Below are positions 48,701 to 51,700 of a stretch of DNA of 64,000 bases, one piece after another. Within the stretch, counting starts at the first letter, position 1. Each line of letters begins with the position of its first letter. Made by a program: the position numbers. This DNA is from Escherichia coli O127:H6 str. E2348/69 (GTDB lineage: Bacteria > Pseudomonadota > Gammaproteobacteria > Enterobacterales > Enterobacteriaceae): the NCBI RefSeq assembly GCF_000026545.1, contig NC_011601.1, one strand, 5' to 3'.

Positions 48701-51700
48701 GCTGCTTTGTTGTTGCCGGGTAGTCAGGGAGAACGATCTCTTCCGGTTCAGGAAGCTGGTAAACAGAGTAAGAGCGAACATCAACAACGATTTCCAGTGG
48801 TAGCTCACTGAATGTGGCGTAGACCTTCTTTGCTTCCTCAATTTGATGATCGCGTTGAGCTTGTTCAGCAGCTCGTTGTTCCTGAGACTCGGTATCATTC
48901 CATTTAGCACGATGAACACGCTGCATTGCCGGGCGGTTTGTTTCCGTTGCTTTGGCAAGCCAGAATGCTTTCTCTTCAGCACTGAATGCTTCTTCTGCCT
49001 GAGCAAGGGCATCAGCACATTGAGTTCTGAGAGAACGGTGATCGATACGTTCTTCACTGCCTGCGGCTTCAAGGTAGCTGTTTGACATCGTGGCCCACGA
49101 CTCACGCCACTGAACAACCATCTTCTTATCATTCCAAGTTCTGTCTTTTTTACCGAAGCCTTCGGGCCCGATGGTTTTCAGGGTTAACATGACGTGAGCG
49201 TGTGGGTTCTTACTGTCTAAGTCATGGAATGCGATATCAGCAATCATTCCTTTATCAACAAAGTTCTTCTGGCAGTATTCGGCAACCAATTTTTTCTTGT
49301 CATCATTGTTGAGTTCTACGGGAATAGCGACATCAAAATAACGGGCTGTTTGACCGTTGTTCTGGCGTTCCACTCTTTCAACTTCATTCCAGAGTGCTGA
49401 GGAGCTTTCAATAATATGAGCAGATGCGGAAACGGGCGCTAATATAATATGACCATGAAGATCTGTTCTGTGGCTGAAATCAAATGTTTCGCCAATGCGA
49501 TCATCTGTAATACGTGTACGGGCATGCTAGGCAGCTTTCGCAACGGAAGTCATGCCCTCGCTTCGTTTCACAATTTTAAAATCCAGATGGAAAATCGCCA
49601 TTAAAAATATAACCTCAAATAAAAATGCTGCTGTTAGTTTTTCGCCAGAAAAACTTCGGGGTTGACGTTGACCTTGGTTTTGCTTTTAGCCTGCGGCAGG
49701 CAACCGTCGGTAGACCCCACACACTGCGTAGCAGTGTATAGGTGGGCATTGTCTTTAAGAAAATAAGCCAATGTAAAATGCCCCTCTTATTAATTAATAC
49801 GAAATATATGTATGGTTGTAAAATAATACGCCGGGTTAAGCGGCGCAAACTGGATTAAAGGTGTAGGTTTCACGTCCACAGGACAAAAAGAGTAAAGAAA
49901 AGGCCCGTAAGGGCAATAGAAGTATTAATTATTCCCGCCGTAAGGCGGGATAGCTAAATTTGATGAAAAAAAACTAATAAAACAGAGAGTGTTATGTGTT
50001 GCACAATTTACAGGTTGAGATTGGAAAATAGAGTTTAAAATTGACAGGTGAAAATAAAAGCACAAATGCGTAAAAATAAGTAACGCGGAGAGTGCCAGAT
50101 GTTTTTGGTTAGTGAATACTATCATATGCGTTGCACATATTTATAAAGAAATGTATCAGAATCATTCTCTCTAACAAAATGGTGTAAATTTGACGTTATT
50201 TCTCTTTGTGATAATTAAATACGTGTAAACAACAAGAGGTGATAACTATGGATGATAATATAAAAAGACCAAGAACAGAAAAAACATTAAAGCAAAAGGT
50301 TGCTTTTGCTCAGCTTGAACTTAACCGCCTTAAGTCTCTGGAGAAATCAGAACGAAAGAAAGTTGAAACAAGGCTAAAGATTATACTTGGTGCGGAAGTA
50401 GCTAAAGCTATGCATTGCGATATCGAACAGGTGGATAAAGAACTCGTTATGGGGATTTTGCTTTCAGCATCTGACCTGAATGATATTGAAAAAATAACAT
50501 ATATAAAAGCAGGCAGGAAGTTTCTCGCGCAAATGGAGGGAAGACAAAAATAAAAATCTTTAAATTTATTTTGAGTCAGGTATTGATATCTGATTATTAT
50601 CTGTTATCTATATAAAAGAACAGAACGCAGGATAATCCTTTATTAATATTTTTTCCTTTTCAATCATGCGTTCTGTTCGACCAGTAATCTGTTAATTTTT
50701 ATCTTTATGTAGTGAACGTTATTATTTCTTTTTTATCAGATATGATAAATATCCCATGAGGAAGTAATAATGACAGTAGTAGTGATAACAAATGTTGTTT
50801 TTAAATCTCCCGGAAGGCAAAGAGAAATCTTTGCCTTTTTTAATTCATCCGTCTGTCAGACAGAGTTAAATATATCTTGTTATTTCTATTGCCAGATATG
50901 AGAGAAGCGTTATAACAGAAGTTATCATTAAAACAAAAAAGGAGATAATAATGGTTTTATTAAATAACCAAAGAAAAAGCAAGAAAGGTTTCTCACTACT
51001 CGAACTACTACTTGTTTTGGGCATCATTGCTGCATTAGTGGTAGCGGCTTTTATTGTGTATCCCAAGGTTCAGGCTTCACAAAGAGCACAGGCAGAATCC
51101 AATAACATTGCCACCATACAGGCAGGTGTTAAAGCGTTATACACGTCGGCATCAAGCTTTACTGGCCTGACAAATACTGTGGCTGTTCAGGCAAAAATAT
51201 TCCCTGACAATATGTTAAGTGGGTCAGGAACGGCAGCTAAACCCATCAATGCCTTTAAAGGTAATGTGACGCTGGCTGCGGCAGCGACTGGTCCGTCATC
51301 AGCGACTGGCTCTTCTTTCACTATCACCTACGATAATGTGCCAGCAGCGGAATGTGTGAAGATTGCAACAGCGGCAGCAGGTAATTTCTACATTACCACG
51401 GTTGGAACCAAGGTTGTTAAAGCCGCAGGAGGAACACTCGATGTGGCAGCTACGGCAGCAGCATGTACGAATGCCACAAGTAATACATTAGTTTTCACGT
51501 CTATTTAATGAAGAGGGCGTAAGCCCTTTTCTTTCTTATTGCTAAAACAGGGAGATAATTATGATAAAGAATAAAGGATTTACCTTACTGGAAGTCAGTA
51601 TTGTTTTAGGTATTGGAACGCTTATCGCTTTTATGAAATTTCAGGATATGAGAAACAATCAGGAAGCGGTATTGGCTGATAATGTCGGAACACAGATTAA

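Follow-up and report, generated by a model that had tools for sequence, protein, structure and literature searches.

Can the 646-bp gap between the divergent mobQ relaxase and traD-like genes of the genomic island IE3 act as an origin of conjugative transfer (oriT), and if so, where would it be nicked? The question concerns a 64,000-nucleotide stretch (the window, numbered from its first letter) of the chromosome of enteropathogenic Escherichia coli O127:H6 E2348/69, in which IE3 is a 25.8-kb island bordered by yeeN and a tRNA-Asn gene. A published list gives IE3 as a 25,819-bp EARL (ROD21-like) island whose excision has been demonstrated by polymerase chain reaction (PMC6035254), and members of that family have in common an integrase plus excision factor, a MobA/MobL relaxase and TraD homologue, and genes for a type IV pilin and a PilV-like protein (PMC6035254, PMC10763509). 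An earlier sequence-only reading took the gap (49602–50247) for a candidate oriT, perhaps orphaned by damage to the relaxase, and proposed comparison with characterised MOBQ origins. In that comparison the gap agrees with the oriTs of pSK41 and the MOBQ4 plasmids in strand, spacing and fold; both the candidate oriT and its orphan state, with the relaxase dead and the oriT core intact, are borne out below. From the alignments we consider it very likely that the gap is the oriT of IE3, an integrative mobilisable island of the ROD21-like family. Its anatomy, conservation, covariation and homology to validated oriTs are demonstrated here; the nick position, the transferred strand, the type of helper and the role of the hairpins are inferred.

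The predicted oriT core and its hairpin

Two sets of relatives underlie the comparisons. E. coli, Yersinia and Klebsiella supplied ten loci, and a protein-guided scan in which each species was represented by a single genome supplied 39 from other Enterobacterales species. Conservation was measured, for each alignment column, as the fraction of 48 loci (about 40 Enterobacterales species) that carry the commonest base. The best-conserved stretch of the gap in the alignment of relatives is 49686–49751, made up of the block TTAGCCTGCGGCAGGCAACCGTCGGTAGACCCCAC, a hairpin and ATAGGTGGGCATTG. Mean conservation is 0.987 over 49686–49720, where 30 of the 35 columns are at least 95% conserved, and 0.969 over 49738–49751, against 0.948 for the first ten mobQ codons and 0.66 for 49801–49860. 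That the block and its right flank are conserved above the first ten codons of the relaxase supports the oriT reading. The features in question are as follows:

49686–49720, plus strand: near-invariant block TTAGCCTGCGGCAGGCAACCGTCGGTAGACCCCAC, 5' of the nick hairpin, presumed site of relaxosome binding (mean conservation as above)
49716–49746, plus strand: two-tier oriT hairpin (single-stranded DNA (ssDNA) fold of −10.3 kcal/mol, z −3.7)
49739–49750, plus strand: nick-region core TAGGTGGG/CATT after the hairpin and an A, the slash marking the predicted nick G49746/C49747 (placed by homology; flank conservation 0.969)

The outer helix of the hairpin pairs CCCAC (49716–49720) with GTGGG (49742–49746) and leaves a 4-nt bulge, ATAG, on the 3' side of the inner hairpin, ACACTGC-GTA-GCAGTGT (49721–49737). 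All six family variants (z −2.3 to −5.1) and pSK41 share this two-tier ssDNA fold, which also forms in MOBQ4 and in many of the distant relatives. The inner stem occurs as ACACTGC-GTA-GCAGTGT, ACGCTCAC-GAA-GTGAGTGT, ACGCTCAC-GAA-GTGAGCGT, ACACTC-GAA-GAGTGT and ACACTGC-TAC-GCAGTGT; it is compensated throughout, and the base of the stem is fixed as ACRC/GYGT. These variants were folded singly, since the MAFFT alignment of the nick hairpins was gapped asymmetrically and unfit for automated pair counts. The rule quoted for RSF1010 is that the nick is preceded on its 5' side, at a distance of about 8 nt, by an inverted repeat constrained in sequence only at the base of its stem (PMC4814116).

We predict that IE3 is nicked on the plus strand between 49746 and 49747, after GTGGG and 9 nt past the inner hairpin (the A plus TAGGTGGG). 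The core lies on the plus strand, the non-coding strand of mobQ, 138–149 nt from the start of that gene, and reads TAGGTGGGCATT in the window and TAAGTGGGCATT in many family members. Against the canonical TAAGTGCGCCCT the window matches at 8 of 12 positions and the relatives at 9, and against the MOBQ4 variant TAAGTGCGCACT at 9 and 10, respectively; the published MOBQ consensus is NWACCNNTAAGTGCGCCCTYNN (PMC3832669). Among 40 distant relaxase relatives (34–45% identical), 27 carry the exact TAAGTGCGCCCT in the same orientation, directly 3' of a hairpin and 65–294 nt upstream of the relaxase start, and none of the 40 carries it on the opposite strand. The change in the core from GTGCG to GTGGG is matched by a change from GCGCAC to CCCCAC in the pairing arm. 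A search of the whole window for TAAGTGCGCCCT with up to three mismatches gave 30 matches (43 expected), none of them in the mobQ–traD intergenic region. One match to the core with a single mismatch, at 28437, was set aside as an ordinary gene start.

We also observed MOBQ relaxases 34–40% identical to that of IE3 on contigs binned as archaeal (Nitrososphaerota and 'Candidatus Bathycorpusculum' metagenome-assembled genomes; loci L055, L061, L067, L069, L075 and L079–L082). Upstream, several of these contigs have the exact bacterial-type TAAGTGCGCCCT core and a hairpin. This could reflect mis-binning or real archaeal mobilisable elements.

The closest plasmid relaxases are those of the MOBQ4 plasmids (the pIGWZ12 / ColE9-J group), whose N-terminal domain is about 45% identical, with Tyr25 in the same place. 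As in IE3, the MOBQ4 oriT is set between divergent genes for the relaxase and a small accessory protein, and it consists of a hairpin, an A and TAAGTGCGCACT (TAAGTGCG/CACT at the nick), with the two-tier fold and the spacing of IE3. The MOBQ4 oriT is a 178-bp intergenic region that has been mobilised experimentally (PMC6856555), and its accessory protein, called MobC, is described as having no homologue among other accessory proteins (PMC6856555), whereas the IE3 accessory protein is of the TraD family. The two differ further in that the MOBQ4 region is shorter (178 bp, against 646 bp in IE3), belongs to plasmids rather than to an integrated island, lacks the two GTAA-loop hairpins discussed below, and is experimentally validated where the IE3 oriT is predicted. 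The second validated counterpart is that of pSK41, whose relaxase NES (with that of pGO1 and pLW1043; Protein Data Bank (PDB) entry 4HT4) is the best solved-structure match to the IE3 relaxase. There nes lies on the opposite strand, and the oriT, about 100 nt upstream, reads GCAC-[GCGAACG-GAA-CGTTCGC]-ATAA-GTGCGCCCT on the plus strand: a GAA-loop hairpin, an A and TAAGTGCGCCCT (TAAGTGCG/CCCT), with the outer helix and the 4-nt bulge as in IE3. The pSK41 core differs from that of the window at 4 of 12 positions, and pSK41, unlike IE3, is a self-transmissible plasmid of a Gram-positive host.

Several points weigh against this assignment. The window core, at only 8 of 12 canonical positions, would escape a consensus search, and since the conserved block also lies in the likely leader or promoter region of mobQ, part of its conservation could be regulatory. 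The exact position of the cut leans partly on that in R1162. It leans otherwise on the NES numbering as quoted in the literature (PMC4176350). In the literature searched there is no experimental mapping of an oriT in any EARL island; the papers covered postulate an oriT without placing it. Finally, deletion of the relaxase homologue left the transfer frequency of ROD21 unchanged (PMC3976249), which calls into question the role of the module in driving island transfer. A 2026 preprint that catalogues relaxase-upstream oriT regions probably includes the IE3 region.

The relaxase gene, its TraD-family neighbour and related modules

The genes on either side of the gap are as follows:

48132–49601, minus strand: mobQ relaxase pseudogene, MobA/MobL, MOBQ class (Pfam MobA_MobL E 5e-54; one TAG in frame)
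49527–49529, minus strand: amber TAG in place of the catalytic tyrosine codon (codon 25; TAT or TAC in 49 of 49 relatives)
50248–50553, plus strand: traD-like gene, 101 amino acids, isoelectric point 9.55, presumed relaxosome accessory protein (Pfam TraD PF06412 E 1e-10)

The mobQ frame runs from an ATG at 49601–49599 to 48132 and its 489 codons are open save for the single in-frame TAG. Its product scores 248 bits against NCBIfam MobQ (cut-off 200) and matches NES of pLW1043 (4HT4, E 8e-25) and MobA of R1162 (2NS6, E 2e-9) in the PDB, and the catalytic tyrosines of both these proteins align on codon 25. IE3 reads GCTGCCTAGCATGCC where its nearest relatives have GCTGCCTACCATGCC, a one-base difference at that codon. 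All 49 compared relaxase genes retain Tyr25 and those that are annotated carry no pseudogene mark, whereas RefSeq marks the IE3 gene as a pseudogene ('internal stop'). Judged from its sequence, then, the IE3 relaxase is inactivated by a single TAC-to-TAG change at the codon of the catalytic Tyr25. In the nearest island from another lineage than that of E2348/69, to which it is 97% identical, mobQ is intact, and so the damage appears to be a recent single nonsense change. The core and the two GTAA-loop hairpins of IE3 are identical to those of the compared relatives with intact relaxases, which makes the site an intact orphan. A tyrosine-inserting amber suppressor would give back the wild-type MobQ protein.

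The traD-like gene, whose product RefSeq names 'conjugal transfer protein TraD', is retained beside mobQ in the relatives. Its protein had no match to MobC in Pfam (E up to 0.01) and none of any kind in NCBIfam. Beside traD in the relatives we found no TraC homologue, and the genes upstream of it have no Pfam match; no coupling protein is annotated within IE3. The sequence-only reading had the general arrangement right, in that a damaged relaxase gene and a basic protein gene of about 100 codons diverge around some 640 bp, and it placed the relaxase start on the correct strand, one base off at 49602. Its description of the small protein as MobC-like did not hold, Pfam giving only TraD, an accessory family of Ti plasmids, and of its RSF1010-type module the MOBQ class stands while the layout is closer to the Ti-type traA-oriT-traCDG order and to the MOBQ4 plasmids.

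In Ti plasmids (traAFBH - oriT - traCDG), as in IE3, divergent genes for a MOBQ-class relaxase and a TraD-family protein border the oriT, which lies between the divergent traAFBH and traCDG operons and has a core related to that of RSF1010 (PMC4700958). IE3 differs from the Ti system in having neither a TraC homologue nor a TraG coupling protein and in a relaxase that lacks the long helicase part of TraA; it scores 171 bits against NCBIfam TraA_Ti, below the cut-off of 590. Of the Ti-type DNA-transfer genes opposite the relaxase, IE3 has only traD. RSF1010/R1162 (mobA/mobB - oriT - mobC) shares with IE3 the class of relaxase, the aligned Tyr25 and an inverted repeat 5' of the nick, but IE3 has no MobC-family or MobB protein, a weaker match to its relaxase (E 2e-9) and a different core. 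The modules are the same as those of IE3 in ROD21 of Salmonella Enteritidis and in other EARL islands, including ICEKp258.2 and the CFT073 tcpC island, the difference being the amber codon 25 of IE3 where the 49 related relaxase genes compared keep Tyr25.

IE3 itself has the hallmarks of an EARL island: it is inserted at tRNA-Asn between flanking direct repeats with annotated integrases adjoining, and it carries a MobA/MobL relaxase gene (here a pseudogene) with traD and a type IV pilin gene with a PilV-like gene. The region 49300–50700 is 100% identical across three E2348/69 assemblies, and E2348/69 has one copy of the module. Similar DNA, to which the CFT073 tcpC island belongs as one relative, is present in 786 of 5,426 complete E. 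coli genomes, chromosomal in every case, with up to three copies in some genomes. BLAST searches with the intergenic region and with the module of the two GTAA-loop hairpins against a set of 72,556 plasmids matched no more than three records, each carrying the same type of island, and thus gave no sign that the hairpins copy the oriT of a helper plasmid. These records are CP088875.1, NZ_AP028969.1 and CP110748.1 (393 kb, 502 kb and 311 kb); the Yersinia plasmid record among them also holds the core chromosomal genes fur, recN, grpE and smpB and may be a mis-assigned piece of chromosome. The PIME mobilisable islands of a 2026 preprint were considered as relatives and rejected as an unrelated IncP-type family.

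The GTAA hairpins and rival explanations

To the right of the predicted nick are two further hairpins:

49903–49914, plus strand: H1, GCCC-GTAA-GGGC (stem covaries; loops GNRA or GAA)
49934–49949, plus strand: H2, CCCGCC-GTAA-GGCGGG (stem almost invariant; loops GTAA, GTA, GCGA, GTGA, GCAA, GTTA)

The sequence-only reading had already noted both, the first with an extra unpaired G49902, and had suggested that they could flank the nick. The bases separating H1 from H2 are AT-rich, poorly conserved and devoid of a MOBQ core, the core lying instead at 49739–49750 beside the hairpin at 49716–49746. They were counted in 50 sequences (the window and 49 related loci): H1 is present in 44 and H2 in 39, about 30 nt apart, and with compensatory changes the two are conserved across about 40 Enterobacterales species. 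The H1 stem is mostly GCCC/GGGC and elsewhere GTCC/GGAC, with a CG to TA exchange in 12 of 40 sequences, and the loops over both hairpins (GTAA, GCAA, GAAA, GCGA, GTGA, GAA, GTA and one GTTA) keep the first G and the last A constant. A 4-bp stem alone would be at chance level. The 14-mer of H2, however, is unique in the 64-kb window (0.1 expected), both hairpins are widely kept and the H1 stem covaries, and on the strength of these data we take both to be real hairpins whose pairing is under selection. Their position is 155–200 nt to the right of the predicted nick; the presumed divergent promoters lie on either side of them, and the best traD promoter-like site is downstream. A consensus fold of 40 sequences over H1–H2 contains just these local hairpins, without a covarying structure on a larger scale, and a search of 49300–50800 against Rfam gave only a sub-threshold chance match. 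Their loop rule (G first, A last, C-G closing pair) is that of the MOBQ nick hairpins on the transferred strand, and in one distant relative ACCC-GTAA-GGGT is itself the nick hairpin. Our guess is that H1 and H2 are folded ssDNA elements on the leading end, serving as extra protein docking sites or priming signals.

Three other accounts of these elements have to be weighed. Were the nick at or between the GTAA hairpins (about 49914–49934), it would be on the minus strand, with H2 as the recognition repeat and a cut at H1 at G/CCCTTACGGG. The minus strand of H1, GCCCTTACGGGC, does have CCCTTACGGG in common with the bases that immediately follow the nick in pSK41 on its 3' side, H1 and H2 are both conserved, and the H1-like motif serves as a nick-proximal hairpin in that one distant relative. 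The bases 5' of such a cut, CTATTG or CTTTTG, are nevertheless unlike AAGTGCG, the repeat would stand about 20 nt from the cut instead of 8, and the orientation would be opposite to that in the 27 exact-core relatives. The spacer, moreover, varies in length as well as in sequence, and the H1 sequence drifts while its pairing holds (GGCCC, GCGCCC, GCGTCC, GTGTCC), the pattern of a structural stem and not of a relaxase target. We therefore regard a nick there as extremely unlikely. The hairpins might instead function as RNA, in a small RNA or a leader transcribed from the plus strand. Tetraloops of the GNRA type are classic in RNA, it is the plus strand that shows the asymmetry here, there is a weak plus-strand promoter-like site at 49567–49595, and a small RNA beside the oriT of SGI1 provides a precedent, being needed for mobilisation (PMC9299015). 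Against this stand the lack of a match to any Rfam family, the consensus fold with its two local hairpins only, the absence of a U-tract terminator after H2, and the position of the best traD promoter-like site downstream of both hairpins; the C-G-closed G-N-A loops of the MOBQ nick hairpins on the transferred strand also mean that the loop rule fits a DNA element. We rate an RNA role as unlikely.

A broader objection is that the conserved block is nothing but a promoter, operator or leader of mobQ and traD, and that EARL islands move otherwise (by cointegration with a helper plasmid, in an Hfr-like manner, or with a helper relaxase acting elsewhere). It draws on the finding that ROD21 transfer is unaffected by deletion of the relaxase homologue and needs pSLT (PMC3976249, PMC6035254), and on the layout, a minus-strand promoter-like site overlapping the core and the block lying between that site and the mobQ start. 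Regulation leaves unexplained, however, the match in bases and in fold, on the correct strand, to two validated MOBQ oriTs, and the retention of a relaxase with its catalytic tyrosine intact in 49 of 49 relatives from many genera; and an oriT that overlaps divergent promoters is normal for this class, as in Ti plasmids (PMC4700958). A purely regulatory block is thus very unlikely in our estimation, and an oriT with its nick beside the two-tier hairpin remains the preferred reading.

The gap holds the following further elements:

49636–49655, plus strand: hairpin AGTTTTTC-GCCA-GAAAAACT between the mobQ start and the oriT core, likely part of the mobQ leader (conservation 0.945)
49661–49672, plus strand: tandem direct repeat GTTGAC GTTGAC, a possible site for an accessory protein (one to four copies in nearly all relatives)
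49829–49845, plus strand: hairpin CGCCG-GGTTAAG-CGGCG, in one subfamily only, terminator-like on the minus strand
49995–50034, plus strand: conserved box TGTGTTGCACA followed by the promoter-like TTTACA-16-TAGAGT toward traD (consensus match and conservation)
50072–50093, plus strand: conserved box AAAAATAAGTAACGCGGAGAGT, presumed leader of the traD operon (alignment of relatives)

These promoter calls, like those of the weak plus-strand site and the minus-strand site over the core, are at the level of the consensus, and the spacing varies between subfamilies. The box TGTGTTGCACA / TGCGTTGCACA occurs twice, at 49995–50005 and 50127–50137, 132 bp apart on either side of the traD promoter-like site, and resembles a repeated operator. 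The loop at 49644–49647 is GCCA in IE3 alone, while the three closest relatives have GTAA and others GTAA, GCAA or GCGA; no other local change of note was seen. Specific to the E2348/69 lineage, the two-base difference may mark the beginning of decay now that the relaxase is lost.

Possible transfer of IE3, its neighbouring genes and the meaning of the prediction

In an intact member of the family, the island would excise as a circle, and MobQ, probably with the TraD-family protein, would bind the plus-strand hairpin 49716–49746 and the invariant block to its left. Tyr25 would cleave at G49746/C49747 and stay attached to the 5' end, and a helper's coupling protein and type IV secretion system would export the plus strand 5' to 3'. 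H1, H2, traD, pilS and pilV would then enter the recipient first, and the hairpin and mobQ last, the hairpin serving for termination and rejoining. This region is probably overlapped or flanked by the promoters of the divergent mobQ and traD genes, in which case the relaxosome could also repress both.

The amber codon at Tyr25 would leave IE3 unable to start its own transfer, so that any movement would depend on the supply of a cognate relaxase or on a relaxase-independent route. Mobilisation in trans is possible but doubtful, because MOBQ4 relaxases are cis-preferring and E2348/69 has a single copy of the module. MOBQ4 relaxases work at least 500-fold better in cis, although NES and R1162 MobA act in trans (PMC6856555). 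As for the helper, ROD21 transfer required the F-like plasmid pSLT (PMC6035254), and MOBQ4 plasmids are best moved by IncI-type (MPF_I) helpers (PMC6856555).

The genes that would follow the hairpins into the recipient, and the ends of the island, are as follows:

50951–53024, plus strand: pilS (major type IV pilin) and pilV (tip adhesin), a conserved transfer-related module
35270–35294: left 25-nt direct repeat TTGGCTCCTCTGACTGGACTCGAAC (3' end of tRNA-Asn), the left end of IE3 (exact repeat)
61061–61137, minus strand: tRNA-Asn gene (61062–61137) with the right copy of the 25-nt repeat (61061–61085), the right end of IE3

The two exact copies of the repeat, at 35270 and 61061, are spaced 25.8 kb apart. 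IE3 has pilS and pilV without pilus assembly genes, and its PilV is a distant relative, at about 26% identity, of that encoded by E. coli and Salmonella conjugative plasmids some 60 kb in size. By this size the plasmids are probably of the IncI2 type. The pilin and PilV of IE3 may be a means of altering the thin pilus of a helper plasmid. A more far-reaching picture, which we think decidedly unlikely, would combine H1 and H2 as an undescribed ssDNA element specific to the island family, for priming or for docking of a protein that arrives with the DNA, with an island-borne pilin and adhesin that exploit IncI-like thin-pilus helpers, and would make IE3 an 'oriT-only' element moved by the relaxase of a sister island.

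Beside mobQ, on the minus strand at 45558–48023, are genes for an ATPase (506 amino acids) and an HNH-like protein (310 amino acids) that match the PADLOC candidate defence system PDC-M62A/B and, more weakly, Septu PtuA/PtuB; the same position in relatives holds different defence cargo, namely tcpC/TIR, ApeA, restriction systems, reverse transcriptase or radical SAM genes. Toward the right end, 55900–61060 contains two full integrase genes and one fragment, with a DUF262 and HEPN pair between the full genes, and another small element may sit at the right end of IE3 within the repeats, either nested or in tandem.

The predicted oriT of IE3 belongs to a known island family and a known MOBQ class and has a slightly divergent core, and it leaves the working of conjugative origins as currently understood unaltered. 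In E2348/69, IE3 is probably stuck unless helped. ROD21-like islands are nonetheless common, and their cargo is one of virulence and phage defence (tcpC, H-NST and, in IE3, the Septu-like pair). A nick prediction that is placed on the sequence, with a fold common to validated origins, allows direct tests of how such islands move, and it could help to resolve how ROD21 is transferred without its relaxase.

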